Origin: Candidatus Acidiferrum sp.
Lineage (GTDB): Bacteria; Methylomirabilota; Methylomirabilia; Rokubacteriales; CSP1-6
Assembly: GCA_035317605.1 (NCBI GenBank)
Contig: DATHGT010000197.1
Span: forward strand, 3,883-67,882
Direction: 5' to 3'
DNA: 64,000 bases
The notes beneath the pieces were generated by a model. It ran no database searches, had not been told where the DNA came from, and saw only the letters and a program-made list of their open reading frames with translations. Positions 14,681 through 48,204 of this stretch are shown one piece after another. Numbering within the stretch: position 1 is the first letter of the stretch; each line of letters starts with the position of its first letter. Made by a program: the position numbers and the translations under genes.

Positions 14681-14812
14681 CGTCGGGGGGAGCGAACGCG
14701 GGGTCTGAGCGAAGGGGCTACGCCCCCTCGCGCTCCCCGGCCCGACACCCCCCACCGCCGCGAGTTCGAATCTCGAGCGCGGATGGACGGATTGCGGCGG
14801 CAAAGCCGCCGC
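14681..14812. repeat. REP/BIME-like multi-hairpin intergenic element
   Basis: Contains gcgaaggggc-TAC-gccccctcgc nested in ggggagcg...cgctcccc, and a perfect gcggcggc-AAA-gccgccgc hairpin at 14794-14812. Confidence 0.6.
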
Positions 14813-20397: not shown

Positions 20398-21029
20398 CCG
20401 AGCACCCCGAGCACCGAGACCCCGCCGGTGACCCGGTCGCCCACGCGGACGCGCACGTCGGTGCCGCGCGGCATCGAGCAATCCGTGCGAGAGCCGAAGC
20501 GGATCATCCCGTAGCGCTGGCCCGCCTCGAGCTTGTCGCCCGCGCCGACCCGGCACACGATCCGCCGCGCGACGATCCCGGCGATCTGGGTCACGGTCAC
20601 CCGCGCGTGCTCGCCCTGCAGGTGGACGGAGCACCGCTCGTTCATCTCGCTCGCGTCGGCCTTGTAGGCGGCGATGAACCGCCCGGTGGTGTAGGTCGTC
20701 CCCACCACGAGGCCCCCGATGGGCGCGCGGTTGACGTGCACGTCCAGCGGCGAGAGGAAGATCGACACGCGGATCGACGGACCGACGAACGGATCGAGGG
20801 CGTCGGCGACGTCGGTCACCCGCCCGTCCGCCGGAGAGAGCACCGCGCGGGTGAGCACCGGGACTTCACGCTCGGGATCCCTGAAGAACCCGAGCGAGGC
20901 CAGCGACGCCGCCGCGAACGGCCACGCCAGCCGGCGACGGCCGGTGAGGAACAGCGCGGCCGCGGCGACGGCGGACCCAAAGATGAAGGGCCAGCCCTCA
21001 CGGGCTATTGGTATGGGGGGCCTAGCCAC
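20394..21029 (-). CDS. psd: Phosphatidylserine decarboxylase proenzyme
   Basis: IAREGWPF, FFRDPER, SPADG, IFLSPLDVHVNR, IRFGSRTD with LGS/FGS-type cleavage site. Confidence 0.94.
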   Translation of the reverse strand: MARPPIPIAREGWPFIFGSAVAAAALFLTGRRRLAWPFAAASLASLGFFRDPEREVPVLTRAVLSPADGRVTDVADALDPFVGPSIRVSIFLSPLDVHVNRAPIGGLVVGTTYTTGRFIAAYKADASEMNERCSVHLQGEHARVTVTQIAGIVARRIVCRVGAGDKLEAGQRYGMIRFGSRTDCSMPRGTDVRVRVGDRVTGGVSVLGVLG

Positions 21030-21140
21030 GGGCCCCCCAAGCCCCTCTTTCGATCACTGAAGGGCTCGGCTCGCCTCCCGAGCGCGGCTCACCTCGCACT
21101 GCCACGTCCGTCGCGCCCTGGCAAAGCCATGGCGCTCCTC
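21013..21140. repeat. Composite REP/BIME-like element (three units), overlapping the psd start and the ilvC stop
   Basis: Unit B ggggcttggggggcccgtggctaggcccccca (minus strand); unit C gctcgcctc...ctcgcactgc at 21069-21102; unit A ggcAAAgcc hairpin at 21113-21140. Confidence 0.7.
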
Positions 21141-22146
21141 AACCCATCCGGGGTGGCTGGATCCACGACATCATCGCGCGGAGCCGCTTGCCCACTTCTT
21201 CGATCGGGTGTTCGGCCTCGCGCCGCCGGGTGGCCAGGAACGAGGGGCGGTTGGCCTGATTCTCGAGCACCCATTCACGCGCGAACTGTCCGGACTGGAT
21301 CTCGCCGAGGATCTTCTTCATCTCGGCGCGGGTCTGCTCGTTCACCACGCGCGGCCCTCGCGTGTAGTCGCCATACTCCGCGGTGTCGGAAACCGAGTAG
21401 CGCATGTAAGCGAGCCCGCCCTGGTAGAACAGGTCGACGATCAGCTTCATCTCGTGCATGCACTCGAAATACGCGACCTCGGGCTGGTAGCCCGCTTCGA
21501 CCAGCGTGTCGAACGACGCCTTGATGAGGTGCGAGATGCCGCCGCACAGCGCCGCCTGTTCACCGAAGAGGTCGGTCTCCGTCTCTTCCTTGAACGTGGT
21601 CTCGAGCACGCCCGCGCGCGTACATCCCACGCCCTTGCCGTAGGCCAGGGCCAGATCCTTGGCCTTGCCGCTCACGTCCTGCTGGACCGCGAGCAGTCCC
21701 GGCACCCCCGGTCCCTGCGTGAAGAGGTCGCGCATCATGTGGCCGGGCGCCTTGGGCGCGATCATGCTCACGTCCACGTCGGGGGGCGGGACGACCTGGT
21801 TGAAGTGGATGTTGAAGCCGTGGGCGAACATCAACATCTTGCCCTTGCCGAGCCCGCCCTTGATCTCGGTCTCGAACACGTGGCGCTGGGTCTGGTCGGG
21901 CAGCAGGATCATGATCACGTCGCCCATCTGGGCGGCCTCGTTCACGGTGGCCACCCGCAGGCCTTCCTTCTCGGCCTTGGTCCAGCTCTTGGAGCCCTTG
22001 TAGAGCCCGACCACCACGTCCTGGCCGGAGTCCTTCAGGTTCAGGGCGTGGGCGTGCCCCTGGCTGCCATAACCGATGATGGCGATCTTCTTGCCTCGGA
22101 GAAGCCCGAGATCCGCGTCCTGGTCGTAGTAGATCTTGGCCGGCAT
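21139..22146 (-). CDS. ilvC: Ketol-acid reductoisomerase
   Basis: [56 protein letters not shown]. Confidence 0.97.
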
Positions 22147-22189
22147 GACTATCCTTTCCTGATCGTTATCGGTCCGTCCCCGCAATCCC

Positions 22190-22263
22190 GAGGGGCGCCA
22201 CGGCTTTGCCGGGGTGCCCCGAGCCACCCTCGGGGGTTTGGGGGGTGCGGCTCGTGCCCCCCA
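22190..22263. repeat. Composite REP/BIME-like element (units A+B), inverted relative to the 21 kb copy
   Basis: gaggggcgccacggctttgccggggtgcccc then gggggtttggggggtgcggctcgtgcccccca. Confidence 0.7.
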
Positions 22264-22268
22264 TGTGA

Positions 22269-27305: not shown

Positions 27306-27412
27306 AGGCTCGGGTCTCCGTCCGTGAGGACCGAAAAAGTCTTTCAAGACTACAGGATACCTCGCGCGAGTGTCAACGAAGCGGCCACGTCTCGCCCCCC
27401 AGGAAATGCGAA

Positions 27413-27440
27413 GGGCCACGGGTCGAACGACCCGTGGCCC
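27413..27440. terminator. Perfect GC-rich hairpin, probable terminator
   Basis: gggccacgggtcg-aa-cgacccgtggccc (13-bp inverted repeat); only a weak U-tract on the minus strand. Confidence 0.55.
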
Positions 27441-27492
27441 TGAAGTGCTGCTCTCCAGCCACGGGCCGCCTGCCCGTGGCATCCGTCGCGTG

Positions 27493-34518: not shown

Positions 34519-34540
34519 CGTCGTCTCCTTGGATATGTTC

Positions 34541-34590
34541 GCCTCGCACGGCGGGGCCCCAGCCCCGCGACGTGCTGCGGCTCGCCCTGC
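34541..34590. repeat. Degenerate REP-like element (unit C-related)
   Basis: Contains ctcgcac and ggctcgcc words shared with 21069-21102; internal gcgggg/ccccgc pairing. Confidence 0.4.
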
Positions 34591-35798
34591 TAGACCGTCT
34601 TGTGCGCGGCGTTCTCGCCGGGGATGCCCGCGGTGATCTCCACGCCGCCGAGGTCGAGGTCCTGCTTCAGCTCCTCGTCGTACTGGCCGCGGAAGCGGAA
34701 GCCGTGGGAGCGGACCGTCGCCTTCTTGTCGCCGATCTTGCCCAGCATCCACGTCTTGTACGCGGGCTTGTCCGTGCGCCACATCTCCCACTGGCTCGCG
34801 TTGTCGTCGAACTGCGACTCGTTGACCATCGTGATGCAGTTCTCGACGGGGCAGACCGCCTCGCACACCCCGCAGCCGCAGCACGACTCCATGTTGGCGT
34901 CGAAGGTGGCGTCGGGCATGACGTCGAAGCAGGAATCGGGGCACGAGATCCAGCAGAGGTTGCACTTCACGCAGGTGTCGAAGTCGATGACCGGGCGCAT
35001 GGTGCGGGTCGTGTACTTCTTGAAGTACGGGTTGCGCTCGGGCACGTACCCCTTGCCCTCTTCCTTGGGCTTGCCCACGGGGATGGCCGGGATGGTGACG
35101 CCTTCCCGCATTTCCCACCACTTGGGCTTCTCGAACGAGTACGGGACCTCGGTGTTGCCCTCGGTCATCTTGATGGCGCGGCTCTCCAGACGGTCGTACG
35201 CCTTGCGGGCGGAGGCGACCTTGAGCTCGGAGCCCCACTCCATCTCGCCGATGGCCTCGCACACGGCGTCCAGGCTCAGGAACGACGGGGCGATCTTGGC
35301 CAGCGCGCCGAGGATGCGCGCTTCGGTGTGGTCTTCCTTGTAGACCCAGAGGCCGGAGAAGGACGCTTTGGCCCGGATGAGGGCCAGCGTGTAGGGCGCC
35401 TCCTTCTTGTGGATGTCGCGCAGCAGCTCGTCGAACGACCGGATCGACGTCATCAGCAGGGTGCCGTTGGGTTGGGTGACCCGGTTGATGGGCTGCAGAC
35501 CGTACCAGGCCCATGACTCCACGCCTTTGGAGAGCGTGTCGTCGACGCAGATCGTGACGTCGACCGACTTCGGCTCGTAGCGGGCCATGTTCTGCTCGAG
35601 CTCTTCCTTCGTGTCGGCGACGATCGCGAAGTCCTTGGCGGGGATGCCGTTTCGCTGCGGGCTGTCGCCGTAGCGTCCGAACGCGATGCCCCATCGCCCG
35701 GCCTTCCGTGACGACAGCACGATGCCGCGGACGATACGCGCCGCGAGGTTCTTCTGGAAAATGCCCCGGTAGACGATTTCTGCGGTCAACGCTGCCAT
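34590..35798 (-). CDS. OFOR gamma-delta fusion subunit with two 4Fe-4S clusters (OOR delta-like)
   Basis: N-terminal gamma-like domain (YGDSPQRNGIP); C-terminal CVKCNLCWISCP and CCGCGVCEAVCP. Confidence 0.85.
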   Translation of the reverse strand: MAALTAEIVYRGIFQKNLAARIVRGIVLSSRKAGRWGIAFGRYGDSPQRNGIPAKDFAIVADTKEELEQNMARYEPKSVDVTICVDDTLSKGVESWAWYGLQPINRVTQPNGTLLMTSIRSFDELLRDIHKKEAPYTLALIRAKASFSGLWVYKEDHTEARILGALAKIAPSFLSLDAVCEAIGEMEWGSELKVASARKAYDRLESRAIKMTEGNTEVPYSFEKPKWWEMREGVTIPAIPVGKPKEEGKGYVPERNPYFKKYTTRTMRPVIDFDTCVKCNLCWISCPDSCFDVMPDATFDANMESCCGCGVCEAVCPVENCITMVNESQFDDNASQWEMWRTDKPAYKTWMLGKIGDKKATVRSHGFRFRGQYDEELKQDLDLGGVEITAGIPGENAAHKTV

Positions 35799-35879: not shown

Positions 35880-36664
35880 GCCCTTGCCAGAAACCCGGTC
35901 AGAGCGCCCGTGAACGCCTCGGGCTGCTCGAGGTTCGACAAGTGGGCGGCCGACGGGAGAATCACCAGCTCGCTCCCCTTGATGCGCTCGTTCATCACTT
36001 TCGACGCGGCCACCGGCGTGCCCTGATCCTCCTCGCCGACGATGATGAAGGTCGGGATCGAGATCGCCGCGATCCGGTCCGTCAGATCGAGCGCCGAGAT
36101 CGCGTGACAGCACCCCGCGTAACCGCGCGGCGGCGTCGAACGAATCATGGTCGCGACCTTGTCGACCACGTCCTTGCGCCGCTCGCGGAACGGCGCGGTG
36201 AGCCAGCGCGCCAGCGTCGGCTCGACCAGCGGGTCCATGCCTTGGGTCTCGGCGGTCTTGATGCGATCGGCCCAGAGCGGCCTGGCCTCGGCGGGAATGC
36301 GGCTCGACGTGTCGCACAGCGAGAGGCTCGCGAACAGCTCCGGGTGCTTCAGCGCGAGGGTCTGGCCGATCATGCCGCCCATCGACAGGCCGACCCAGTG
36401 CGTCCGGGAAATGCCGAGCGCCTGGAGCAGCTGCCGCGCGTCCTCTGCAAGCTGATCAAGGGTGTAAGCCCCGCCCGGCGCCTCGGTGGCGCCATGACCG
36501 CGCGTCTCGTAGTTGAGTACACGGTAGCGGGCCCGGAGCGCGGCCACCTGCGGGTCCCACATCGACAGATCGGTCGCCAGCGAGTGGCTCAGCGTCACGA
36601 CCGGCGCATTCGCCGGACCTTCCAGCGTGTAGTTCATCTCGATCCCGTTCGCCTTCACCTTCAT
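35876..36664 (-). CDS. 3-oxoadipate enol-lactonase (PcaD)-like alpha/beta hydrolase
   Basis: PVVTLSHSLATDLSMWDPQ, GLSMGGMIG, GEEDQGTP, AAHLSNLEQP. Confidence 0.85.
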   Translation of the reverse strand: MKVKANGIEMNYTLEGPANAPVVTLSHSLATDLSMWDPQVAALRARYRVLNYETRGHGATEAPGGAYTLDQLAEDARQLLQALGISRTHWVGLSMGGMIGQTLALKHPELFASLSLCDTSSRIPAEARPLWADRIKTAETQGMDPLVEPTLARWLTAPFRERRKDVVDKVATMIRSTPPRGYAGCCHAISALDLTDRIAAISIPTFIIVGEEDQGTPVAASKVMNERIKGSELVILPSAAHLSNLEQPEAFTGALTGFLARA

Positions 36665-37302
36665 CTGTTCGTCTCCCTTCTCCGTCTGACCATCTCGCAA
36701 AAATACCGGTGGACGGCCTGCTCGCCGGTCACCTCGGGGTGGAACGTGGCCACGAGCACCGTCCCTTGCCGGGCCATGACGGGATCGTCGCCCTGACGCG
36801 CGAGCACCTCGACACCCTCGCCGACCCGCCGGATGCGCGGGGCGCGGATGAACATCATCTCGATCGACGCCGGGGCGCCGTCGAGCACGGCGGTGCCGCT
36901 GACCTGGAACGACTCGCGCTGGCGGCCGTACGAATTTCGCTCCACGTCCACGTCGATGAACCCGAGCGAGAACTGGCGGGGGTTCTCGACCTCCCGCGCG
37001 AGCAGGATGAGCCCGGCGCAGGTCCCGAACATGGGTTTGCCCGCGGCGTGGAACTTTTCCAGCGCGGGCACGAAGTGCCACTCGTCGATCAGCTTGAGCA
37101 GGGTCGTGCTCTCCCCGCCGGGCATGACGAGCCCGTCGAGGTCCGCGAGCTGCTCGGGCTTGCGGACCTCGACGGGGTCCACGATCATTGCACCGCTCGC
37201 CTCACCGCCCGACGCGGTTCGGCTCGCACTGCGCCCGCACGCCTTCAGCGTCTTCACGTGGAGCGCGAAGTCACCCTGAAGGGCGAGCACGCCAATTTTC
37301 AC
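36661..37302 (-). CDS. pdxT: Pyridoxal 5'-phosphate synthase glutaminase subunit, with about 14-aa N-terminal insertion
   Basis: IGVLALQGDF, MPGGESTT, GTCAGLILLA, RNSYGRQRESF, FIRAP, TFHPE. Confidence 0.95.
   Translation of the reverse strand: MKIGVLALQGDFALHVKTLKACGRSASRTASGGEASGAMIVDPVEVRKPEQLADLDGLVMPGGESTTLLKLIDEWHFVPALEKFHAAGKPMFGTCAGLILLAREVENPRQFSLGFIDVDVERNSYGRQRESFQVSGTAVLDGAPASIEMMFIRAPRIRRVGEGVEVLARQGDDPVMARQGTVLVATFHPEVTGEQAVHRYFCEMVRRRRETNR
37195..37232. repeat. REP-like unit C inserted in frame within pdxT
   Basis: gctcgcctc...ctcgcactgc matches intergenic 21069-21102; encodes RSASRTASGGEAS. Confidence 0.65.
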
Positions 37303-37304
37303 TC

Positions 37305-38201
37305 CTACCAGCCTCTGGTTTGCAGCAGCTCGCTTTCCGGGAGCTTGGAGGTCTCGATGCCGGGCATGGCCTCGCCGAGATCCTCGCTGACCTTCACCAG
37401 CACGTCGGGGTCCTTGTAGTGCGTGGTGGCCTGGACGATGGCCTTCGCGCGCTTGGCCGGATCCTCCGACTTGAAGATGCCCGAGCCCACGAAGACCGCC
37501 TCGGCGCCGAGCTGCATCATGAGCGCGGCGTCAGCCGGGGTCGCGATGCCTCCCGCGGAGAAGTTGGGCACGGGCAGGCGGCCCGCCTTCGACACCCAGC
37601 GGATCAGGTCGTAGGGCGCGCCGAGGTTCTTGGCCTCGGTCATCAGCTCCTCGGGGCCGAGCGTGGTCAGCCGGCGGATCCCCGAGATCACCGCGCGCAT
37701 GTGCCGGACGGCCTCCACGATGTTGCCGGAGCCCGCCTCGCCCTTGGTGCGGATCATCGCGGCGCCCTCGCCGATGCGCCGGAGCGCCTCGCCGAGATCG
37801 CGGCAGCCGCACACGAACGGGATGCGGAACGCGAACTTGTCGATGTGATAGTGCTCGTCGGCCGGGGTGAGCACCTCGGACTCGTCGATGTAGTCCACGC
37901 CCAGGGCCTCGAGGATCTGCGCCTCGACGAAGTGGCCGATGCGGGCCTTCGCCATCACCGGGATGGTGACGGCCTTCTGGATCTCCTGGATCTTCCGCAC
38001 CGGCGACATCCGCGCGACGCCACCCTGCTTGCGGATGTCCGAGGGCACGCGCTCGAGGGCCATCACCGACGCGGCGCCCGCGTCTTGCGCGATCTTGGCC
38101 TGCTCGGCGTTGGTGACGTCCATGATCACGCCGCCCTTGAGCATCTCGGCCAGACCGATGTGCTTGCGTTCCGCGATCCGCAGCTCGTTCAGCTCAGTCA
38201 T
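37305..38201 (-). CDS. pdxS: Pyridoxal 5'-phosphate synthase lyase subunit
   Basis: [59 protein letters not shown]. Confidence 0.97.
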
Positions 38202-38238
38202 TGCGTTCTCCTTGTTTGGATTTCGTGCTTCGTCCGCA

Positions 38239-39771
38239 TCACACGACCGGGACGGTGGCGCGCTCGGGCAGCGGGCTCCGTGGCCGGCGACGCTGCGCCT
38301 CGCGCACGGCCTCGCCGAGCCGCTGGACGCCGCGCTCGATGTCGCCCGTCGGCAGCGACGAGAACGACAGGCGGAGGGCCCGCGAGCCGCTGCCGTTGAG
38401 GAAGAACACGTCGCCCGGCGTGAAGGCGACGCCTCGCTCCAGCGCGAGCGGGAGCAATCTCGCCGCGGTCACCCCCTCCGGCAACGTCAGGAACAGCGAG
38501 AACCCGCCGGTCGGCTCCGTCCACGTCGTGGACGTGGGCATGCGCTGCTTGAGCGCGCCCAGCAGCACCTCGCGGCGCCGGCGATACTCGCGGGCGACCC
38601 GCGCGGCGTGCCGGTCGAGCAGTCGCCGCTCGCAGAAGCAATGGACGGCGGCCTGGATCAAGGCGCTGGTGTGCAGGTCGGCCAGCTGCTTGGCCGCCTG
38701 CAACCGCTCGATCACCGGCGGCGGCGCCACGAGCCAGCCCAATCGCAGCCCGGGAAAGAGGATCTTCGAGAACGTGCCGATGTAGATGACCACGCCGTCG
38801 GTGTCGTGTGACTTCAACGGTCCGAGGGGACGCAGCCCGTAATAGAGGCTGCCGTCGAACCCGTCCTCCACGATCGGCACCTGGTGGCGGGCGGCCGCGG
38901 CGAGCAGGCGCCGGCCCGTCTCCACGGTCATCCCGAGCCCGGTCGGGTTGTGACAGGTCGGCTGGCAGTAGAAGAGCTTCGGGCCGTGCCGCTCGAGCAC
39001 GCGCTCGAAGACCTCCGGGCGAGGCCCGCTCTCGTCCCACGGCACCGCCGCGAGCTGAGCGCCGAAGGACCGAAAGACCTGCATCGCGCGCGGGTAGGTC
39101 GGCTGCTCGATGGCCACCACGTCGCCGGGATCGACGAGGGTGCGGGCGATGAGATCGAACCCCTGCTGCGAGCCGTTGACGATCATGATCTCGTCGGGCG
39201 AGGCTTCGAGGCCGAAGCGCAGCAGGTACGTGGAGAGATAGCGGCGCAGCGGCGGATAGCCGGCCACGGGATAGTACTGGAGCAGCGCCTCGCCCTCCCG
39301 CCGGATCACCTCGTTGAGCGCGCGTCGAAAGGCGTCGGTGGGAAACAGCGCGCTGTCCGGCATGCCCCCGGCGAAGGAGATCACGCCGTTGCCGGCGGGA
39401 GTCGGGCCCGCGGAGGCGCGCCGGCGCTCGTCTTCGGCGCCGATGATCTGCGCCGTCCGGGAGAAGATCTCGGACCACTCGATGGTGGCCGCGCGGCGGG
39501 CCACGGCCGGCTCGGCGGCGACGCGCTCGGCCGGACGCTCGGCCACGAACGTCCCCTGCCCCACCCGCGCGCGGGCCAGGCCGGCGGCGACCAGCTCTTC
39601 GTACGCCAGCACCACGGTGGCGCGGTTGACCCCGAGCTCGTCGGCCAGCTCGCGCGTGGCGGGCAGCTTGGCGCCCGAGGGCAGGAGCCCCTCGCGCATC
39701 AGCCGCTCCAGGTGCGCCTGGATCTGGCGGGCCAGCGGCACCGGCTTGTTCCGATCGAGCAGGATCTGCAT
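38239..39771 (-). CDS. MocR/PdxR-family PLP-dependent regulator (GntR wHTH + aminotransferase)
   Basis: [42 protein letters not shown]; directly upstream of pdxS. Confidence 0.93.
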
Positions 39772-39906
39772 AGGTTCGCTCGCCCAGCCATTCTTGCTCG
39801 AAAATATGGGGCGTCAAGGACCAATTGGAGGGGTGCGCGGCCGACCATTCCGGCGCCCCGGTATAATGGCCGCGCAGCGCATTCAGCGGGCCAGGAGGAC
39901 CAATCA

Positions 39907-40086
39907 ATGGCGGGTGAGGCACCGATCACGCAGGCGGTGAAGTGGATCGACGATCAGCTCCTGGACCGCCCTCAGGCCGACCGCCTCAAGCTCGTGGACG
40001 AGGCGGCCCAGCGCTTCGATCTCACCCCGCTCGACGCCGAGTTCCTCTACCGCCACCTCGCGGAGCGCGCCAAGCCCAAAGCCTGA
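39907..40086 (+). CDS. Small helical hypothetical protein (59 aa)
   Basis: SD GGAGG and TATAAT at 39862-39867; MAGEAPITQAVKWID...DEAAQRFDLTPLDAEFL. Confidence 0.75.
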   Translation: MAGEAPITQAVKWIDDQLLDRPQADRLKLVDEAAQRFDLTPLDAEFLYRHLAERAKPKA

Positions 40087-40098
40087 CCGTCGCCGTCC

Positions 40099-40374
40099 TC
40101 AGGCGTCCCGCAGTCGGACGATGGTGGCGCCCCAGCCGCCGCGCGCGGGCGGAGCGTCGGCGAGCGAGACGACCAGCTGGTGGCGTGAGAGCACGGCGCG
40201 AACGATCGACCGCTGCACCCCGATCCCCCGCCCGTGGACGATTCGGACTTCCCGGAATCCCCGCTCGTGCGCGGCCTTCAGGTACTCCTCGACCACGGAC
40301 GCCACGTCGCGCGGCCCGAACGAATGCAGATCTAAGACGTCTTCGATCGGAATCTGAATCGGTTCATCGTCCAC
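40099..40374 (-). CDS. Stand-alone Smr/MutS2 domain protein
   Basis: IEDVLDLHSF, VRIVHGRGIGVQR, GGWGATIV. Confidence 0.92.
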   Translation of the reverse strand: MDDEPIQIPIEDVLDLHSFGPRDVASVVEEYLKAAHERGFREVRIVHGRGIGVQRSIVRAVLSRHQLVVSLADAPPARGGWGATIVRLRDA

Positions 40375-40456
40375 CGACTCAGATCTTTGGTCCGGCCATG
40401 ACGTGCCGCTGCCAGTGGTCGTAGCTCAGGAGATCCTCCCCCGAGAGCTTGCACTG

Positions 40457-40858
40457 TCAGAACGTGGCGGCCCGCTCGAAGAACGGGACGTCGACGACGA
40501 GGACGTTCTCGGCCCGCGCGGTCTCCGCAACTTTCTGGGTCACCATCTGGCGCACGAACGGAATGGGGATGCGTCCCAGACGATGCAGCACGTCGTCGGT
40601 GCAGCGCACGCGCGTGCCCGGAAGCACGGGCCCTTCGGTCGCCGCCATCTCGTCCGGCGCGTGCTCGCAGGTCTCGGGAACGAGCTGCTGCAGGCGCAGC
40701 GACACGTACTCGGTGACCCAGGCCTGGATTCCCGCCTTCGCGGCGTCCAGGCCCGCGCCCGAGGCCAGGCGCTCGTTCAGCGCGCCGAGCAGCGCTTCCA
40801 GCCGGCCGAGCCGCGCTTCGAGCGCGTCCAGCCGTCGATCGAGATTCGAATCACTCAT
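40457..40858 (-). CDS. Coiled-coil protein with C-terminal PCP_red-like helical domain
   Basis: N-terminal heptads RRLDALEARLGRLEALL; C-terminal LHRLGRIPIPFVRQMVTQKVAETAR resembles the PCP_red RIPxFVR motif. Confidence 0.6.
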   Translation of the reverse strand: MSDSNLDRRLDALEARLGRLEALLGALNERLASGAGLDAAKAGIQAWVTEYVSLRLQQLVPETCEHAPDEMAATEGPVLPGTRVRCTDDVLHRLGRIPIPFVRQMVTQKVAETARAENVLVVDVPFFERAATF

Positions 40859-40877
40859 CGATTCCCCCAACGATTGG

Positions 40878-42299
40878 TCATGGTGCGAGCGGAGGCCGGC
40901 GGGTATGCCAGTCGGTGGCGCGCTGGTACGTATCCGCGGCGCGCAGCACCGTGGCTTCGTCGAATGGACGGCCGACGATCTGAAGGCCGATGGGCAGACC
41001 GTCTGAGGTGAAGCCGCACGGCAGCGCGCAGGCCGGGTGGCCGGTGAAATTGAACGGACGCGTGAAGCGCAGCAGCGACGACCGCACGTCGATCGTGCCT
41101 TCGCCGGCGTCGACCTCCGTCTCGCCGATCCGCGTGGCCGGGATGGGCGTGGCCGGCGAGAGCAGCACGTCGCGCCGGGCCAGCGCCGCGTCCACCGCGG
41201 CCCGCACGAGCGCGCGCGCTTGCTGGGAGCGGACGTAGTGCACGCCGCTCACGAACGCGCCCGCGCGCAGCCGCTCGATGACGTCGGGCTGGTAATCGCC
41301 GGGCCGCCCGCGCACCCACTCCGCGTGATACGCGAGCGCCTCCGACGCGACGATGGCCATCGAGCCCGCGGCGACGCTGCCGACGTGCTCGAGCGTCACC
41401 TCGTCCACGTGGGCGCCCAGGCCTTCGAGCGTCTTCACCGCGCGGTCGACCGCGTCACGAACTTCCGGGACCGCCGCGTCGACAAAGCCTGAGCGCAGCA
41501 CGCCCACGCGCAGTCCCTTGACGTCGCCCGTCAGCGCCGCCGAGTACTCGGGCACGGGCAGCACGCTGGTCGTGGGATCCGCCGGGTCATACCCCGCGAG
41601 TGCCTTCAGCACGAGCGCGGCATCCGTCGCCGAGCGCGTCATCGGACCGGCGTGGTCCATCGACCACGACAGCGGCAACACGCCCGCGCGGCTCACGCGG
41701 CCATACGTCGGCTTCAGCCCGGTGATCCCGCACAGCGACGCGGGAATGCGGATCGATCCGCCGGTGTCGGAACCGAGCGCGAACGGGACCAGGCCGGCCG
41801 CCACCGCCACGCCCGAGCCCGAGGACGATCCGCCGGCGATCCGCTCTTCACTCGCGTCCCACGGGTTGAGCGAGGTGCCGTAGTGCACGTTCAGACCTTC
41901 CGGACCGTACGCGAACTCGTGCATGGTGAGCTTGCCGAGCGAGATCGCCCCGGCGGCGGCCAATCGACGGACGACGGTCGCGTCCTCCGCCGGCACCCGG
42001 TCGGCGAGAATCTTCGACCCGCCCGTCGTGCGGACTCCCGCGGTGTCGAAGAGATCCTTCAGCGCGAACGGCACGCCGTGCAGCGGCCCCCGCGAGCGCC
42101 CGGCGGCCAGCTCAGCCTCGGCGGCGCGCGCGGCCTCGAGGGCGGCGTCCGCGGTGAGCGTGATGAAGCAGCGCAGACGCGCATCGAGCGCCGCGATGCG
42201 ATCGAGATGCGCGCGGACGACCTCGACCGGCGAGACGTCCTTGGTCGCGATCGAGCGCGCGAGGTCGGCGACGGACGTCCAGTGCAGATCGGCCATCAC
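40878..42299 (-). CDS. Amidase-signature family amidohydrolase (GatA/AtzE-like)
   Basis: GPLHGVPFALKDL, GGSSSGS, LGSDTGGSIRIPA, GLKPTYGRVS. Confidence 0.93.
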   Translation of the reverse strand: MMADLHWTSVADLARSIATKDVSPVEVVRAHLDRIAALDARLRCFITLTADAALEAARAAEAELAAGRSRGPLHGVPFALKDLFDTAGVRTTGGSKILADRVPAEDATVVRRLAAAGAISLGKLTMHEFAYGPEGLNVHYGTSLNPWDASEERIAGGSSSGSGVAVAAGLVPFALGSDTGGSIRIPASLCGITGLKPTYGRVSRAGVLPLSWSMDHAGPMTRSATDAALVLKALAGYDPADPTTSVLPVPEYSAALTGDVKGLRVGVLRSGFVDAAVPEVRDAVDRAVKTLEGLGAHVDEVTLEHVGSVAAGSMAIVASEALAYHAEWVRGRPGDYQPDVIERLRAGAFVSGVHYVRSQQARALVRAAVDAALARRDVLLSPATPIPATRIGETEVDAGEGTIDVRSSLLRFTRPFNFTGHPACALPCGFTSDGLPIGLQIVGRPFDEATVLRAADTYQRATDWHTRRPPLAP

Positions 42300-42475
42300 A
42301 CCACCCGGTACTGCGTGACGGGCTCGACGGAGGCCAGCGGCAGCGCCTCCAGCCGCTCGAGCGCCTGGAGCGCGCGCTCGATCGCGGACCGCAGCGGCTC
42401 GAGATCCGAGGGCGCGAAGTCGAACCCGGCCAGGCGCGCGGTGCGTTGCAGCGTTTCCACGTCGACGGAATTCAT
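42296..42475 (-). CDS. Small GatC/AtzG-like amidase partner
   Basis: 59 aa MNSVDVETLQRTARLAGF...LPLASVEPVTQY; stop overlaps the amidase start. Confidence 0.65.
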   Translation of the reverse strand: MNSVDVETLQRTARLAGFDFAPSDLEPLRSAIERALQALERLEALPLASVEPVTQYRVV

Positions 42476-42530
42476 CCGCGTGAGGATACCATCACCGCGC
42501 GTCGCGGAAACCCGGCTAGAATCGAAAGTC

Positions 42531-44399
42531 GTGGCCCTCACGCTCACCGTGCTCACCGATCCCGCCGATCCCGCGGCGCGCCGCGACGTCGCTCTCACCG
42601 GCGGGAACGTGCTCAAGGCGGCCCAGGCCGCGGGGATCGAGATCACCGCCATCTGCGGGGGCCGCGGGCGCTGCACGTCCTGCCGCATCAAGTTCGTGTC
42701 CGGCGCGCCGCCGCCGCCGACGCTGGGCGACGAGGTCCAGCTCGGCGCCGATCTCGTACGCGAGGGCTACCGTCTGGCCTGCCAGTGTCGTCCGAGCGAA
42801 GCCGCGATCGTGCAGCTGGCGCCGCCGCTCCAGGAGGAATCGTTCCAGATTCTCGCCGCCGTGCCCGGCGCGGCGCGCGCGAGCGGCGTGGTCATCGACG
42901 CGGGCATCGTCAAGCAGGTCGTGAAGGTCGACCTGCCGCGCGAGGAGCACCGGCAGACGTCCGACCTCGACCAGCTGCTGACCGCGATCGGCCATGAAGC
43001 TGCCGACGTCGGCCCGAGCGTGCTGGGGACGCTTCCCGCCGCCCTGCGCGGCGACGACGGTCAGGTCACGGTGACCACGTTCGGCCGCCGCGTCCTCGCC
43101 GTCGAGCGCGGCGACACCGCGCTCATGAAGTTCGGTCTCGCCATCGACGTCGGGACCACCAGCGTGGTGACGACCTTGCTGGAGCTGGAATCGGGCGAGC
43201 AGCTCGCCGCGGTCTCGAGCCTCAATCCACAATCCGCGTTCGGCGGCGACCTCATGTCGCGGATCGCCTTCGCCCAGTTCAACCCCGGCAACCTGCGCAA
43301 GCTCACCACCCGGATCGTCGGGCTCCTGAACCAGCACGTCGCCGAGGTGTGCCGCGAGGCGGGCGTGCTGTCGAAGTGGATCTACAAGGCCGTGGTGGTC
43401 GGCAACACGTGCATGCATCACCTGCTGCTCGGCATCGATCCCTCGTACGTGGGGCTGGCGCCCTACGCGCCGGTGATGCGCCATCCGCTGGTGCTGCCCG
43501 CGCGCGACCTGCCGCTCAAGATCGCGCCGGAGGCGCGCGTGTGTCTGCTCCCGCTGGTGGCCGGCTTCGTGGGCGCCGACGCCGTCGCGGTCGCGATCGC
43601 CACCCGCATCTACGCCGCCACCGACGTTCGGGTGGCCGTCGACATCGGAACCAACGGTGAGGTCCTGCTCGGCTCGCCCGATCGGCTGTGGGCGTGCTCG
43701 GCGCCGGCGGGCCCCGCCTTCGAAGGCTCCCAGATCCGTCACGGAATGCGCGGCGCGTCCGGCGCCATCGACCGGGTGACCATCGACGACGACGTCCACG
43801 TCCACACGATCGGCGAGACCGACCCGCTCGGCATCTGCGGGTCCGGGCTGATCGATCTGCTCGCGGGACTCCTCGACGCCGGCGTGATCGACCCGACGGG
43901 ACTGATCCAGGTCGAGCGGCGCGACGAGCTGCCGCCACGGCTGGGCGATCGCGTGGTGATGCGCGGCGAGGAGCGCCAGTTCATCGTGCTGAGAGCCGGC
44001 GAGGCGGGCGCCGCGCGCGAGATCGTGCTGACCCAGGACGACGTTCGGCAAGTCCAGCTCGCCAAGGGCGCGATCGCCTCGGGCGTCGCCATGCTCATTC
44101 ACGTCGCCGGGATCCGGCTCGACGGCGTCGCCGAGCTGATGCTGGCCGGCGGCTTCGGCAACTACGTGTCGATCCCCAGCGCGCTGCGCATCGGGCTCAT
44201 CCCCGCGCTGCCCGTCGAGCGCGTTCGGTATGTCGGCAACGCGGCGTCGCTGGGCGCCCAGCTCTGCCTGCTCTCCGAAGCCGAGCGCTCGCGCGCCGCG
44301 GAGATCGCCGCGCGCATCGAGCACGTCTCGCTGGCCGCGCACCCGGACTTCGAGCAGATCTTCGTGGACTGCATGAACTTCCCGCCCCTCGCGTCATGA
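42531..44399 (+). CDS. ASKHA/DUF4445 ATP-dependent reductive activator of corrinoid proteins (RACE) with N-terminal 2Fe-2S domain
   Basis: CGGRGRCTSC...RLACQC; AIDVGTT, FGGDLMSRI, VVGNTCM, DIGTNGE, APAGPAFEG, GICGSG, LAGGFG; GTG start approximate. Confidence 0.92.
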   Translation: MALTLTVLTDPADPAARRDVALTGGNVLKAAQAAGIEITAICGGRGRCTSCRIKFVSGAPPPPTLGDEVQLGADLVREGYRLACQCRPSEAAIVQLAPPLQEESFQILAAVPGAARASGVVIDAGIVKQVVKVDLPREEHRQTSDLDQLLTAIGHEAADVGPSVLGTLPAALRGDDGQVTVTTFGRRVLAVERGDTALMKFGLAIDVGTTSVVTTLLELESGEQLAAVSSLNPQSAFGGDLMSRIAFAQFNPGNLRKLTTRIVGLLNQHVAEVCREAGVLSKWIYKAVVVGNTCMHHLLLGIDPSYVGLAPYAPVMRHPLVLPARDLPLKIAPEARVCLLPLVAGFVGADAVAVAIATRIYAATDVRVAVDIGTNGEVLLGSPDRLWACSAPAGPAFEGSQIRHGMRGASGAIDRVTIDDDVHVHTIGETDPLGICGSGLIDLLAGLLDAGVIDPTGLIQVERRDELPPRLGDRVVMRGEERQFIVLRAGEAGAAREIVLTQDDVRQVQLAKGAIASGVAMLIHVAGIRLDGVAELMLAGGFGNYVSIPSALRIGLIPALPVERVRYVGNAASLGAQLCLLSEAERSRAAEIAARIEHVSLAAHPDFEQIFVDCMNFPPLAS

Positions 44400-45304
44400 G
44401 CGCTCCGCCCCCCGCTTCGCTGCGTTTGCCGCCGGAGACACTCGGGGCGACGGCGGGACCGTGCGAGCAGACGATCGACGCGCGATGGCTCATGGCCTAC
44501 GCGGGAGCGCTCGGCGAGACCGACGCGCGCTACTTCGACACGATCGCGGCGTCGGGACCGGCCGCGCATCCGCTCTTCTCGGTCTGCTACGAGTGGCCGG
44601 TGGCCGTCGCGCTGCGCGACCGTGCGATCGGCGAAGCGATCTCGCCGTTCAGCGTCCACGCGACGCACGACGTCGTGGTTCATCGTCCGCCGCGCGCGGG
44701 CGACCGGCTCAGCACGACCGCGCGCATCGTCGAAGTCCGCCCCGTGAAGGCGGGCAGCCTGGTGATCGGCCGCTACGACACCGTCGACGCGGCCGGCGCG
44801 CCCGTGACCACCACGCACTACGGCTCGATCTACCGCGGCGTCGCCTGCGCTATCCAAGCAGAGACTTCAGCAGAGAATTCAAGTACCGCCCCGGCGCAGC
44901 CGGGGCGCGACGCGCCCGGGGGGGTTTGGGGGGAGCCGAAGGGGCCCCCCAACTGGACAATCCAAGTGCCCATCAGCGCTCACCTCGCGCACGTCTACAC
45001 CGAGTGTGCACGGATCTGGAACCCCATCCATACCGACATCGCGGTCGCGCGAGCCGCCGGTCTGCCCGGACTCATCCTTCACGGAACCGCCACTCTCGCG
45101 CTCGCCGTCTCGCAGGTCGTCACGCGTGAGCTGGGCGGCGATCCCGGACTCGTCCGTCGTGTCGCGGCCCGCTTCACCGGCATGGTGCCGATGCCGTCGT
45201 TCGTGACCGTCCGTGGGTACGAATCACAGACCGGACACGTCGACTTCGACGCGATCGATGCCGCCGGGCGCGTCGTGCTCGGCCGAGGAGTGGTCAAGCG
45301 ATGA
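44396..45304 (+). CDS. Double hot-dog (MaoC-like, hydratase 2-type) dehydratase
   Basis: N-terminal YAGALG...HPLF...VH...VVVHRP; C-terminal YTECARIWNPIHTD...AGLPGLILHG; ATGA overlaps on both sides. Confidence 0.85.
   Translation: MSAPPPASLRLPPETLGATAGPCEQTIDARWLMAYAGALGETDARYFDTIAASGPAAHPLFSVCYEWPVAVALRDRAIGEAISPFSVHATHDVVVHRPPRAGDRLSTTARIVEVRPVKAGSLVIGRYDTVDAAGAPVTTTHYGSIYRGVACAIQAETSAENSSTAPAQPGRDAPGGVWGEPKGPPNWTIQVPISAHLAHVYTECARIWNPIHTDIAVARAAGLPGLILHGTATLALAVSQVVTRELGGDPGLVRRVAARFTGMVPMPSFVTVRGYESQTGHVDFDAIDAAGRVVLGRGVVKR
44889..44952. repeat. REP-like hairpin plus unit B inserted in frame in the hot-dog linker
   Basis: ccccggc-GCA-gccgggg and ggggtttggggggagccgaaggggccccccaa; matches intergenic copies at 22232-22263 and 21013-21045. 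Confidence 0.7.
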
Positions 45305-46326
45305 AGCAGATGAGCCGCCGCGAGCGCCTGCTCGCCGCCGTCAACGGCGAGCCGACCGATCGCACGCCCTACGCCTTCTGGCGCCACTTCCCGCAGATCG
45401 ACACCAACCCGGCCGGGCTGGCCCAGGCCACCCTCAGGTTTCACGAGCGCTATGGTTCTGACTTCCTCAAGATCACCCCGGCCGGCAGCTACGCGGTCGA
45501 GGCGTGGGGCTGCGTGGAGAGCCCCGACGTCCGGCCCGACGGCCATCGGCCCTGCGCCACCTGCGCGGTGCGCCACGCCGAGGACTGGAAGCGCATCGGG
45601 GTGCTCGATCCCACGACGGCGGCCGGCTACTCCCTGCACGTCGAGACGATCCTGCGCATGGGCTTCGATCGCCGCATCGGCGACGCGCCCGCCCTGCCCA
45701 CGGTGTTCTCGCCGCTCTCGCTGGCCAAGAAGCTCTCGGGCGATCGGCTGCGGGACGATCTCCGCGCCCACCCCGACCTCGTCCGCGGCGCGCTCGAAGC
45801 GATCACCGAGACCCTGATCAGGTTCGCCGACGTGGCGCTGACCGAGGGCGCCTCCGGCGTCTTCTATTCGATCCAGGCCGCGAGCCTCGGCCAGCACACC
45901 GAGGAGGAGTACGCGGAGTTCGGCGAGCCCTACGACCGGCGCTTCCTCGAGTCGCTGGGCTCACGCTCGATCCTGACCGTCATCCACTGTCACGGCGAGC
46001 GGCTGATGTTCGATCGCCTCGCCCGCCTGCCCGGTCACGTCTGGAACTGGGACGACCGGGGGTCGGGGCCCTCGCTCGCGCAGGGCCGCGCCGTGGTGAG
46101 CGGAGCCCTCGCGGGCGGGCTCGATCAGTGGAAGACCCTGCGCGACGGCACGCCCGAGAAGGCCGTGGCGGAGGCGGAAGACGCGCTCGCCCAGACCGAC
46201 GGGCGCGGTCTGATCGTCGCCGCCGGTTGCGTGCTGCCGATGGACACTCCCGACCCCAACGTCGCCGCCGTCGTCCGCCGCCTCGGCGGCCCCCTCAAGC
46301 CCGTCCCCGGCGCCGTCTTTCGGTGA
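45301..46326 (+). CDS. Uroporphyrinogen decarboxylase / MtaA-CmuA methyltransferase superfamily protein
   Basis: RRERLLAAVNGEPTDRTP, TVFSPLS, IHCHG, WNW, GLIVAAGC; TIM-barrel URO-D-like layout. Confidence 0.75.
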   Translation: MKQMSRRERLLAAVNGEPTDRTPYAFWRHFPQIDTNPAGLAQATLRFHERYGSDFLKITPAGSYAVEAWGCVESPDVRPDGHRPCATCAVRHAEDWKRIGVLDPTTAAGYSLHVETILRMGFDRRIGDAPALPTVFSPLSLAKKLSGDRLRDDLRAHPDLVRGALEAITETLIRFADVALTEGASGVFYSIQAASLGQHTEEEYAEFGEPYDRRFLESLGSRSILTVIHCHGERLMFDRLARLPGHVWNWDDRGSGPSLAQGRAVVSGALAGGLDQWKTLRDGTPEKAVAEAEDALAQTDGRGLIVAAGCVLPMDTPDPNVAAVVRRLGGPLKPVPGAVFR

Positions 46327-48048: not shown

Positions 48049-48204
48049 GCTAAATAATCCTCGGGAAATTGGTCGACCGTTTCACGTCGGGGGGTCGAGC
48101 GCCGATTTCGCAGAAAAGAGGAGCGAAGCTCCTCTTTTTGAGGACCCAGGCCAGCCGACCCCCCGACGTGAAACGGTCGACCAATTTCCCGAGCTCCATT
48201 TAGC
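48049..48204. mobile_element. MITE-like element with 38-bp perfect inverted repeats and an internal hairpin
   Basis: 48060-48097 is the exact reverse complement of 48156-48193; outer gctaaat/atttagc pair; core aaaagaggagc-GAA-gctcctctttt. Confidence 0.6.

Follow-up and report, generated by a model that had tools for sequence, protein, structure and literature searches.

In the lineage represented by this DNA (Rokubacteria/Methylomirabilota) there are very probably at least two families of interspersed repeats, which are short, rich in GC, able to form hairpins, and located mostly between genes. One copy each of the two described here, module C and module B, now sits in frame within two ordinary enzymes, adding 17 residues to PdxT and about 22 to a double hot-dog dehydratase. 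The probability of this explanation as a whole is put at roughly 0.85. Family membership, boundaries, presence or absence in orthologs, and structural location are established for both inserts. The window, that is, the whole 64,000-nt stretch analysed, is Rokubacteria-like DNA with a GC composition of 68.5%, and its closest genome loci all belong to Rokubacteria/Methylomirabilota MAGs. A preliminary description of this DNA proposed at least two different repeat units with two to three in-gene cases in 64 kb; two families and two cases hold, whereas profile and hairpin scans of the window gave no third case within a coding sequence. It also regarded the process as undescribed, which applies to this phylum at most, since intragenic REPs (repetitive extragenic palindromes) have already been catalogued elsewhere (PMC3733652) and in-frame intragenic MITEs have been reviewed (PMC10969869). 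In-frame repeat insertion is known from Rickettsia and other bacteria, to which this phylum is an addition, and a literature search for papers on Rokubacteria repeats found none.

A module C copy within pdxT

The features concerned are as follows.
36661–37302, minus strand: pdxT, glutaminase subunit of PLP synthase, 213 aa (Pfam SNO, E = 4.6e-49; PDB PdxT matches down to E = 3e-50)
37305–38201: pdxS, with pdxT directly downstream
37183–37233, minus strand: module C copy of 51 nt, in frame in pdxT, encoding residues 24–40, RSASRTASGGEASGAMI

The pdxT ORF remains open through the insert, reading ...KACG-RSASRTASGGEASGAMI-VDPVEVRKP, and Cys95, His188, and Glu190, which we take to be the catalytic triad, occupy invariant columns of the alignment. 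The insert DNA can be written CGCAGTGCGAGCCGA-ACCGC-GTCGG-GCGGT-GAGGCGAGC-GGTGCAATGATC, where GGTGCAATGATC at the 3' end is part of the repeat too. The extra residues had been noticed previously but counted as about 14; the size is 17, because HMMER alignment with the solved PdxT structure 1q7r leaves a single gap of exactly 17 residues at the insert and the window gene has exactly 51 extra nucleotides (37183–37233) relative to the closest ortholog without it, L139, with flanking DNA 93.1% identical. In the AlphaFold model, residues 21–40 have a pLDDT of about 64 and lie between helix 12–23 and strand 42–46, and the inserts of both enzymes fall in low-confidence, unstructured surface segments of otherwise confident models. 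Neither terminal inverted repeats nor a target-site duplication was seen at the pdxT junction.

Against nhmmer profiles built from copies outside pdxT, the insert scores 39.9 bits (E = 2e-11; second profile, E = 3.9e-11), compared with a top score of 12.2 bits in 100 dinucleotide-shuffled windows, a result that is partly circular because the pattern used to select the profile copies came from the head and tail of the insert itself. The 13-nt tail GGTGAAATGATCG was outside the search pattern, yet the insert matches it. Furthermore, the insert begins and ends where intergenic copies place the limits of the element, the unselected GGTGAAATGATC tail included, and translation of intergenic copies in that same frame yields the same peptide, for example SASRGGASAEASGEM.

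The module C family

The module C consensus is G[T/C]AGTGCGAGCCG-hairpin-GAGGCGAGC-GGTGAAATGATC, comprising a head that reads G[T/C]AG, a GCGAGCC/GGCGAGC outer stem in which G-A mismatches occur in tandem, a variable inner hairpin, and a tail of CTATGA/CTGTGA or GGTGAAATG. A metagenome scan for the head and tail returned at least 120 stretches with at least 132 usable copies, and none of the 132 usable copies among the matches listed comes from pdxT. More than 100 copies have unrelated surroundings, and several subfamilies are represented among them, as are nested copies and mosaics with partner elements; some are flanked by other palindromes (L027, L050, L062), and arrays run head-to-tail. 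The hairpin is well supported: base pairing is kept in 97.9% of cells, compensatory changes affect 5 of 13 pairs, and 0 of 500 shuffles reached the observed covariation score. Among the matches listed, module C runs in the same direction as both flanking genes in 28 of 36 callable cases; the upstream ORF ends at the element's TAG for 23 of 49 testable GTAG heads, and a coding ORF starts at an ATG of the tail in 18 of 48 cases; GCAG takes the place of GTAG in half of the heads, and about 2 of 117–132 copies lie within long ORFs. The GAGG...ATG segment is often found at the start of the next gene. Further in-frame copies were found in two other proteins, a class-V aminotransferase and a MoeA whose Pfam MoeA_N match extends across the insert.

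The window itself holds a typical intergenic example.
34530–34592, minus strand: module C copy of the 52-nt type in a 2-oxoacid:ferredoxin oxidoreductase-like operon (nhmmer 42.9 bits, E = 2.7e-12; best shuffle 13.0)

This copy starts at the TAG of the upstream gene (34592–34590) and lies 12 nt from the next ATG (34518–34516), and the matching junction in L012 has a 10-nt spacer without the element.

Module B in the dehydratase linker and between genes

The second in-frame insert and the intergenic elements related to it are listed below.
44396–45304, plus strand: double hot-dog (MaoC-like) dehydratase, 302 aa (Pfam FAS1_DH_region at residues 17–139, MaoC_dehydratas at residues 182–278)
44887–44952, plus strand: module B element of 66 nt, in frame in the inter-domain linker, encoding roughly APAQPGRDAPGGVWGEPKGPPN
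44887–44907, plus strand: hairpin 1, 9 bp with a GCA loop, CGCCCCGGC-GCA-GCCGGGGCG
44920–44933, plus strand: GGGGGTTTGGGGGG, after a spacer
44926–44952, plus strand: hairpin 2, G6...C6, TTGGGGGG...CCCCCCAA
22185–22264, plus strand: full module B copy, intergenic, between two minus-strand genes (nhmmer E = 4.8e-8)
21013–21150, minus strand: compound intergenic element of three modules (fold z = -3.26)
21013–21051, minus strand: module B core in the compound element (module B profile, E = 1.9e-5)
21059–21105, minus strand: diverged module C copy in the compound element (module C 31-nt profile, 12.8 bits, E = 0.0046)
about 21105–21143, minus strand: hairpin of the module B 5' part in the compound element (module B profile, E = 0.095)

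Module B, roughly 80 nt long, has two hairpins and is built around GGGG(C/T)TTGGGGGG; in it, a GC hairpin is followed by GGGGGTTTGGGGGG and a G6...C6 hairpin. About 1 Mb of fetched DNA contains 14 distinct copies, 12 of them outside the hot-dog linker, and the copies flank many different genes. The suggestion that the linker is encoded by a GCA-loop hairpin plus a unit also present between genes is borne out: a profile made from 10 copies that lie between genes in other genomes, containing no window or hot-dog copy and thus free of the circularity of the module C profile, has its top window match at 44876–44951 (profile positions 6–81 of 82, 34.5 bits, E = 1e-9), and the best score in 100 dinucleotide-shuffled windows is 9.6 bits. 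Counts of the component motifs in the window are also raised, with 4 GGGGGTTTGGGGGG-type matches against 0.74 expected and 4 G6-N-C6 matches against 0.38 expected. Both intergenic partners proposed for this unit were recovered, and the copy at 22185–22264 shows the full layout (hairpin GGGGCGCC...GGTGCCCC, then GGGGGTTTGGGGGG and the G6...C6 hairpin; DNA fold -28.5 kcal/mol, z = -2.75). The intergenic partner proposed for the pdxT insert (21069–21102) is borderline by itself, as 2 of 100 shuffled windows also reached its 12.8 bits; it is credible mainly because other repeat modules flank it on both sides in the compound element. Hairpin 2 of the compound element is identical to that of a copy upstream of pdxS in L012.

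The dehydratase ORF likewise stays open. Its start overlaps the stop of an upstream RACo-like gene (ATGA), and the gene order is conserved in L138 and L140. The AlphaFold model has a mean pLDDT of 90.8, with both domains above 90 and the linker, which has no regular secondary structure, at 44–61.

Distribution among orthologs

Both inserts show presence and absence in ortholog alignments. Distant homologs (solved PdxT structures as well as the actinobacterial loci L010/L011) lack the pdxT insert, and it is patchy among orthologs, with partial forms adjoining full forms in a short-protein NJ tree without support values; L003 retains a footprint, CGCAG followed by CGGTGAAATG. Since the same site is shared by lineages 83–89% identical to the window and one whole tree clade is filled, much of this patchiness may reflect one old insertion with repeated loss rather than recent activity. 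In the dehydratase, the linker segment is missing from orthologs at 75–82% identity, and the element is absent or partly deleted through internal deletions in L140 and L141, while L138 carries an orthologous insert with 27 extra in-frame nucleotides. The 55%-identical ortholog L136 has an element of a different subfamily in the same linker, with a TTCAC-loop hairpin like that of the intergenic L002 copy and its head read in another frame; the L136 and window elements are independent events in one linker.

Proposed explanation and alternatives

It is proposed that the repeats live mainly between genes and that a module C copy was inserted into the PdxT loop between helix 1 and strand 2, and a module B copy into the linker joining the two hot-dog domains. 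These inserts would have survived because their lengths (51 nt and, judged by element bounds, about 66 nt) are divisible by three, because the chosen frame is free of stop codons, and because they lie in surface segments without structure. The enzymes would thus carry an extra predicted peptide, probably disordered and presumably neutral, and the copies would then evolve as coding sequence through in-frame indels, partial deletion leaving footprints, or exact loss. As a tblastn search with E. coli RayT across about 1 Mb of fetched DNA found no transposase, we infer both the mobility of the elements and the mechanism of mobilisation: the GTAG head, the lack of target duplication, the exact 51-nt presence or absence, and the nested copies suggest a single-strand HUH/RAYT-like enzyme as the mover.

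The alternative that fares best, though unlikely, is that the inserts are truly repeat-derived but have been kept because they are useful, for example by giving PdxT a loop for regulation or interaction, or the dehydratase a tuned linker length. A conserved SASR...GEAS motif (SASRxxSxGEAS) across insert-bearing pdxT lineages, retained by a whole clade, could indicate function instead of neutrality, and the window element is 92% identical to that of L012 by hand alignment while the genes are 82.6% identical. However, the conserved residues are encoded by the arms of the element, and these arms are just as conserved in copies between genes, so that conservation at the DNA/RNA level or conversion explains the motif; moreover, exact loss or footprints arose several times with the gene retained, the segments have low pLDDT and no structure, and unrelated enzymes carry the same elements.

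Considerably less probable is copying in the reverse direction, with the intergenic repeats being fragments of the pdxT and hot-dog genes or spread by gene conversion. Module C copies in the pdxS-pdxT spacer beside the insert (L012, L015, L007) could suggest local duplication, and the L015 pdxT copy, whose hairpin is unlike the window's and nearly identical to those of the unlinked copies L065 and L095, offers a hint of conversion, but the wealth of subfamilies, nested copies, and mosaics in unrelated contexts, the absence of the segment from PdxT of other phyla and from the closest ortholog, and the many different genes adjoining module B all speak against it. An ORF artefact, in which the genes are broken up, out of frame, or wrongly assembled at a repeat and no protein with the insert is made, appears slightly more improbable still. 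Metagenome assemblies may mis-join at repeats and a GTG start after the hot-dog insert is possible; nevertheless, insert alleles recur, always in frame, across independent assemblies and samples, in-frame indels build up within them (as in L138), both flanks form one conserved protein with invariant residues intact, both AlphaFold models are confident single chains, and all hot-dog orthologs are fused two-domain proteins. Least plausible is that these are ordinary lineage-specific low-complexity loops or linkers resembling repeats as a by-product of GC content, a view favoured by the hypervariable length and sequence of the hot-dog linker across all orthologs, the weak blastn-short pairwise matches, and the shuffle-level 21069–21102 match, but opposed by the full-length profile scores far above shuffled controls, the coincident element boundaries, and the shared peptide.

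Comparison with known repeat systems

MIRUs (mycobacterial interspersed repetitive units) are short direct-tandem units that are said to occupy intercistronic operon gaps in the orientation of the genes, with stop and start codons reportedly placed so that flanking genes remain expressed. To our knowledge they are confined to mycobacteria, are not centred on a hairpin as REP-like units are, and have no in-frame insertion in enzyme loops; their likeness to the present elements is functional only. Enterobacterial BIMEs (bacterial interspersed mosaic elements) combine different modules in variable mosaics, as at 21013–21150 in the window and in L027, L050, and L062, but the modules differ and no alternating-orientation REP pairs are present here.

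Intragenic MITEs (ERIC, Coxiella QMITE1, pneumococcal BOX, and Anabaena MITEs; reviewed in PMC10969869) are likewise small, non-autonomous elements able to form in-frame ORF fusions, but their terminal inverted repeats and target-site duplications are both missing at the pdxT junction. Rickettsia palindromic elements (Ogata et al. 2000 via PMC10969869) also occur both intergenically and in frame in unrelated housekeeping genes, whose proteins tolerate the added peptide. They have no sequence relationship to the present elements, measure about 100–150 bp with nearly half of copies in ORFs (PMC10969869), as opposed to 51–80 nt and the small share of listed module C copies in long ORFs given above, and belong to a reduced intracellular host rather than a free-living, large-genome soil phylum.

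Module C resembles GTAG-tagged REPs. It differs in that half of its heads are GCAG, its arms are conserved on both sides, it has a conserved 3' tail with GAGG and ATG, its arrays run head-to-tail whereas REPs are typically inverted dimers, no RAYT gene was found near it, and its host phylum lies outside the Proteobacteria, Cyanobacteria, Chloroflexi, and PVC surveyed for GTAG repeats (PMC3733652). Intragenic GTAG/CGTC REPs encoding extra residues, and termini supplying TAG, have been catalogued across several phyla (Di Nocera et al. 2013, PMC3733652). The shared features are a short palindrome that folds into a stem-loop and bears G-T-A-G as an unpaired head (PMC3733652; Nunvar et al. 2010, PMC2817692), high copy number, a mostly extragenic position between co-directional genes, a TAG that often serves as the upstream stop codon, and occasional whole copies within ORFs that contribute extra loop or linker residues (PMC3733652).

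Repeat-derived inserts in two protein-coding genes

Two genes of the window, pdxT and a double hot-dog (MaoC-like) dehydratase gene, carry real repeat-derived in-frame inserts, the first a copy of the short GTAG/GCAG-headed palindromic repeat module C and the second a copy of module B, a two-hairpin repeat of about 80 nt. The pdxT insert scored 39.9 bits (E=2e-11) with profiles of non-pdxT module C copies, and the hot-dog linker was the best window match (positions 6-81 of 82, 34.5 bits, E=1e-9) of a module B profile constructed from ten intergenic copies of other genomes, with the window and hot-dog sequences left out. Both scores are well above chance: with the whole window dinucleotide-shuffled 100 times, module C scores peaked at 12.2 bits, and the module B profile never exceeded 9.6 bits on shuffled windows. 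The features concerned are as follows.

36661-37302, minus strand: pdxT, encoding a complete SNO/PdxT protein (Pfam E=4.6e-49)
37183-37233, minus strand: module C copy in frame within pdxT
34530-34592: module C copy of the 52-nt class, between two oxidoreductase genes (E=2.7e-12)
21059-21105: diverged module C copy, proposed in the preliminary description (as 21069-21102) as the partner of the pdxT insert; only borderline alone (12.8 bits, also reached by 2 of 100 shuffles)
44396-45304, plus strand: hot-dog dehydratase, 302 aa, N-terminal FAS1_DH_region and C-terminal MaoC domain
44887-44952: module B element within the hot-dog gene, in which a GCA-looped hairpin of 9 bp is followed by a spacer, GGGGGTTTGGGGGG, and a second hairpin, G6...C6
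22185-22264 and 21013-21051: intergenic module B architecture, as the preliminary description had reported for the unit in the hot-dog linker

The window thus holds three module C copies, and two of its six repeat copies are genic. The interpretation originally offered, namely repeat-driven in-frame protein insertion, is supported by orthologs, shuffles, and structure models, and the presence of the pdxT insert was correctly recognized, its length being slightly greater than estimated. A third in-frame case, also suggested at that stage, was not found among all perfect hairpins with a stem of at least 8 bp in the window. Genic hairpins at 4001, 19880, and 52256 were ruled out as further in-frame repeats, as they lie within normal conserved sequence.

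The pdxT insert and its orthologs

The window has a GC content of 68.5%, and the closest genome relatives of its pdxT are solely MAGs labelled Rokubacteria, Rokuibacteriota, or Methylomirabilota. Soil metagenome contigs and the window have the gene order Smr, PdxR-like regulator, pdxS, pdxT, hydrolase, and 2-oxoacid:ferredoxin oxidoreductase in common. At the insert, the pdxT ORF reads KACG-RSASRTASGGEASGAMI-VDPVEVRKP, where HMMER alignment with the solved PdxT 1q7r places a single 17-residue gap. Of 120 close PdxT homologs, about a third contain a related segment (RSASRxxSxGEASGEM...), the remainder having CG directly joined to VE, and short remnants such as RGEMT or RSANGEMT occupy the site in some of them.

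The nearest pdxT ortholog among the DNA compared (L139; L handles denote fetched genome or metagenome loci) shares 93.1% identity with the window apart from the insert, where precisely 51 nt (37183-37233) are missing, so that the insert comprises 17 codons. It is present at the identical codon in the more distant L012 (82.6% identity) and L015 (89.4%). Aligned with each other, alleles with and without the insert differ cleanly by 51 nt, and neither flank is duplicated at the junction. The copy in the window is headed by GCAG and the orthologous copy in L012 by GTAG. In L003 (10060-10090), RSGEMT is all that pdxT has at this site, the DNA reading CGCAG followed by CGGTGAAATGACC; judged by its sequence, this remnant is the element head plus tail with the middle removed between two GCGAG arms, a putative deletion footprint. 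Predicted junction peptides of the inserts include TASGGEASGAMIVDPVEVR and DAPGGVWGEPK.

Sequence and structure of the module C family

A generic repeat finder applied to the whole window returned composition-driven noise alone and missed the repeat units, and blastn-short with four exemplars gave marginal pairwise matches, so that profiles were needed; the pattern GCAGTGCGAG-N6-CGCG showed no enrichment (8 matches versus 4.2 expected). Module C copies were gathered by scanning public metagenomes with AGTGCGAGCCG-N(8-38)-GAGGCGAGC, which yielded at least 120 stretches. Among the metagenome matches listed, none of the 132 usable copies was located in pdxT, and the shared layout runs from a G[T/C]AG head through the arm TGCGAGCCG, a variable GC hairpin, and the second arm GAGGCGAGC to a tail of CTATGA, CTGTGA, or GGTGAAATG(A/G)NCG. 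By length, the same matches form three principal classes (about 31, 36, and 52 nt), and 127 of these copies have the head tetranucleotides GTAG (58), GCAG (59), GGAG (5), and GAAG (5). The pdxT insert agrees with the 36-nt class over its whole length, down to GGTGCAATGATC, a stretch outside the search pattern, and intergenic copies translated in the same register yield the same peptide, e.g., SASRGGASAEASGEM.

In the 52-nt class, 97.9% of hairpin cells are paired, compensatory changes occur in 5 of 13 pairs, and none of 500 shuffles attains the score observed. Around a tandem G-A mismatch, the conserved arms can lengthen the stem, and the pdxT copy folds into an outer stem plus a 5-bp inner stem. 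The junction in L012 corresponding to 34530-34592 contains no module C element. In five loci (L025, L036, L054, L108, and L117), a 31-nt unit is nested within the loop of a 52-nt unit, with GGGGC(C/T)G on one side of the junction and (C/T)AGTGCGAG on the other, which suggests that units may insert into hairpin loops. Module C is also regularly flanked by the palindromic motifs GGGGGGAGGCTTCGGAAGGGGGGCG... and GCGCCGGCAAAGCCGGCGC (L027, L038, L050, L062, L081, L100, and L110), together forming mosaics similar to BIMEs; a hairpin resembling these palindromes, GCGGCGGCAAAGCCGCCGC, is located at 14794-14812.

Other palindromes were observed in the window. Strong intergenic hairpins at 27412-27441 and 27458-27480, with perfect stems of 13 bp and 9 bp and the shared motif GCCACGGG, belong to neither module. 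At 48049-48204, an inverted repeat whose 49-nt arms are 92% complementary encloses a hairpin with an 11-bp stem (48114-48138) bordered by A and T runs; the repeat has a lower GC content than the DNA around it and may represent a bidirectional terminator or a small mobile element.

Module C between genes

Flanks of module C were judged by local flank tests. Among the matches listed, it lies between co-directional genes in 28 of the 36 copies with both flanks callable; of 49 testable GTAG-headed copies, 23 use the head TAG to terminate the coding ORF upstream; and of 48 copies whose tail contains an ATG, 18 have a coding ORF starting at it, GAGG lying about 7 nt 5' of that codon. The tail reads GAGGCGAGCCTATG in loci of the range L016-L135 (e.g., L064, L034, L076, and L097), and in L064, for example, GAGGCGAGCCT-ATG opens an ORF starting MTAGKWDVVIGLEVHAQL. 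From these sequence features, module C looks like a portable junction composed of a stop, a hairpin, a ribosome site, and a start. Every multi-copy locus among the matches listed has its copies on one strand in head-to-tail arrays (L017, L037, L107, L112, and L007). In L007 (9690-10000), a tandem array with a period of about 135 nt fills the pdxS-pdxT spacer, its first unit starting at the pdxS TAG, whereas the two genes are just 2 nt apart in the window.

Module B and the hot-dog dehydratase linker

Outside the window, the module B architecture was found between genes in L002, L003, L007 (twice), L008, L009, L012, L059, L060, and L084. The basic hot-dog linker is about 20 residues long in orthologs. 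TAPAQPGRDA(N/P)GGVWGEPKGPPN, intact or decayed, is found in the linker of the dehydratase of the window and of one group of orthologs (69-85% identity), and other orthologs at 75-82% identity lack the segment. At the DNA level, L138 has an orthologous copy that differs by substitutions and a further 27 nt in frame; in L141, only the C-run and the left half of hairpin 1 are kept, and in L140 almost the entire element is missing. In L136 (55% identity), the same linker contains a full element of another subfamily (profile E=2.4e-5), which is similar to the intergenic L002 copy in its hairpin GGGCGGAC-TTCA-CGTCCGCCC and its spacer GGAGGCG and has its head read in another frame. The distinct subfamily and frame point to at least two independent insertions into the hot-dog linker. 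A further perfect 11-bp palindrome, GGGGAGGCTTC...GAAGCCTCCCC, is present in the L137 linker and has a 10-mer in common with an intergenic motif; its membership in a dispersed family was sought and could not be shown.

A recurrent linker insert, GAWTTRRAHRE, was observed in a distant hot-dog subgroup (homologous proteins P0189, P0190, P0195-P0197, P0201, P0212, P0213, and P0240). Within 41652-46326, the hot-dog gene is flanked by a RACo-like (Fer2/RACo_C_ter) gene and a URO-D-like gene, and its ATG overlaps the upstream stop (ATGA); the conservation of this order in L136-L140, together with the overlap, suggests that the three genes form one functional unit.

Protein structure and other host genes

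PdxT and the dehydratase were modelled with their homolog alignments, and both inserts were found in low-pLDDT segments. The dehydratase model has a mean pLDDT of 90.8, with both domains above 90 and residues ~150-185 at 44-61 without regular secondary structure. In the PdxT model (mean 88.8), residues 21-40, between helix 12-23 and strand 42-46, average ~64. Conserved catalytic-type residues are intact in both alignments. The low confidence at the insert positions and the intact domains suggest that, in these models, the inserts occupy places where extra peptide would most likely be tolerated. Among the metagenome matches listed, 2 of ~117 module C copies lie inside long ORFs with a coding signature on both sides, so that genic copies represent rare exceptions in a mostly intergenic family. 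The two ORFs encode a MoeA, in which the Pfam MoeA_N match spans the insert, and a class-V aminotransferase, in which the insert reads SSASRGRPMDEASGEMAR.

Gain, loss, and mobilization

In a neighbor-joining tree of pdxT (insert columns removed; short protein, no support values), the insert is nearly always present in one large clade and scattered in the other, where remnants occur beside full forms. Together with the L139 comparison, this pattern is consistent with an ancient insertion that was afterwards lost repeatedly, either exactly or in part. The L015 pdxT hairpin is unlike that of the window and nearly identical to unlinked copies, so that re-insertion or gene conversion is possible, as judged from sequence.

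Module C may be handled as a single-stranded hairpin in a REP-like manner. Its junction placement, arrays, nesting, lack of target duplication, and exact 51-nt presence/absence would be expected of such elements. A tblastn search of the window and ~1 Mb of fetched loci, a partial genome sample, with one distant E. coli RayT query detected no RayT homolog (best E=9.2). A bolder reading, to which roughly one chance in seven is assigned, would regard module C as a self-contained TAG-hairpin-GAGG-ATG intercistronic cassette that an enzyme other than a classical RAYT moves without leaving a scar (no target duplication, exact loss) and that repeatedly re-enters the same sites, with pdxT codon 23 and the hot-dog linker each hit several times independently. 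Both the site-directed recurrence of insertion and the movement of a stop-hairpin-SD-start cassette by a further enzyme are unproven; if true, in-frame peptide insertion in this phylum would be site-directed and recurrent rather than random insertion followed by selection.

Significance and comparison with known systems

Repeat-derived in-frame insertion in pdxT and the hot-dog gene adds a deep-branching, uncultured, soil-abundant phylum to the lineages in which selfish palindromic repeats remodel loops and linkers of proteins, and does so with clean pairs of alleles that carry or lack the insert. It also marks naturally permissive insertion sites in PdxT and the double hot-dog dehydratase. 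REP-like ends carrying a stop codon, a ribosome-binding motif, and a start codon would fit operon junctions without breaking expression. In practice, modules B and C will produce odd alignment gaps and low-confidence model loops and could break assemblies of Rokubacteria MAGs, and their presence or absence could act as strain markers.

A full-text literature search found no paper on Rokubacteria repeats, and this lineage lies outside the phyla surveyed by Di Nocera et al. (PMC3733652). That survey, which covered more than 80 species, assigned their REPs to two superfamilies, GTAG-tagged and CGTC-tagged, noted that the TAG stop of flanking ORFs often derives from GTAG termini, and listed REPs wholly within ORFs of known proteins, which may be neutral because they lie in linkers or loops. 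Module C fits the GTAG-REP description in most respects, being a short imperfect palindrome (stem-loop) that is mostly extragenic, near ORF ends, and often supplies the stop codon through its TAG. However, GCAG variants, arms conserved on both sides, and an SD/ATG tail distinguish it, as do its head-to-tail arrays, the opposite-orientation dimers typical of REPs not being seen; nor was a RAYT flanked by repeats, another REP feature, detected for it with the one E. coli RayT query.

MIRUs are tandem units in operon gaps, co-oriented with genes and providing stop/start signals for the flanking genes. Module C corresponds to this intercistronic, tandem, co-oriented, stop/start description, the resemblance being functional only. 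MITEs, in contrast, have terminal inverted repeats and target-site duplications, whereas module C is one hairpin with no duplicated flank. According to a recent review (PMC10969869), it is not uncommon for intragenic MITEs to form in-frame fusions, the RPEs of Rickettsia being the extreme case. The present repeats resemble RPEs in being palindromic and in frame within coding genes (pdxT, hot-dog, MoeA, and aminotransferase), where they add a tolerated peptide, and are set apart by size and host (51-80 nt in Rokubacteria versus ~100-150 bp in Rickettsia). The insertions in pdxT and the hot-dog gene, which the preliminary description had taken for an apparently undescribed process, are therefore not a new process but a further instance of one already described.
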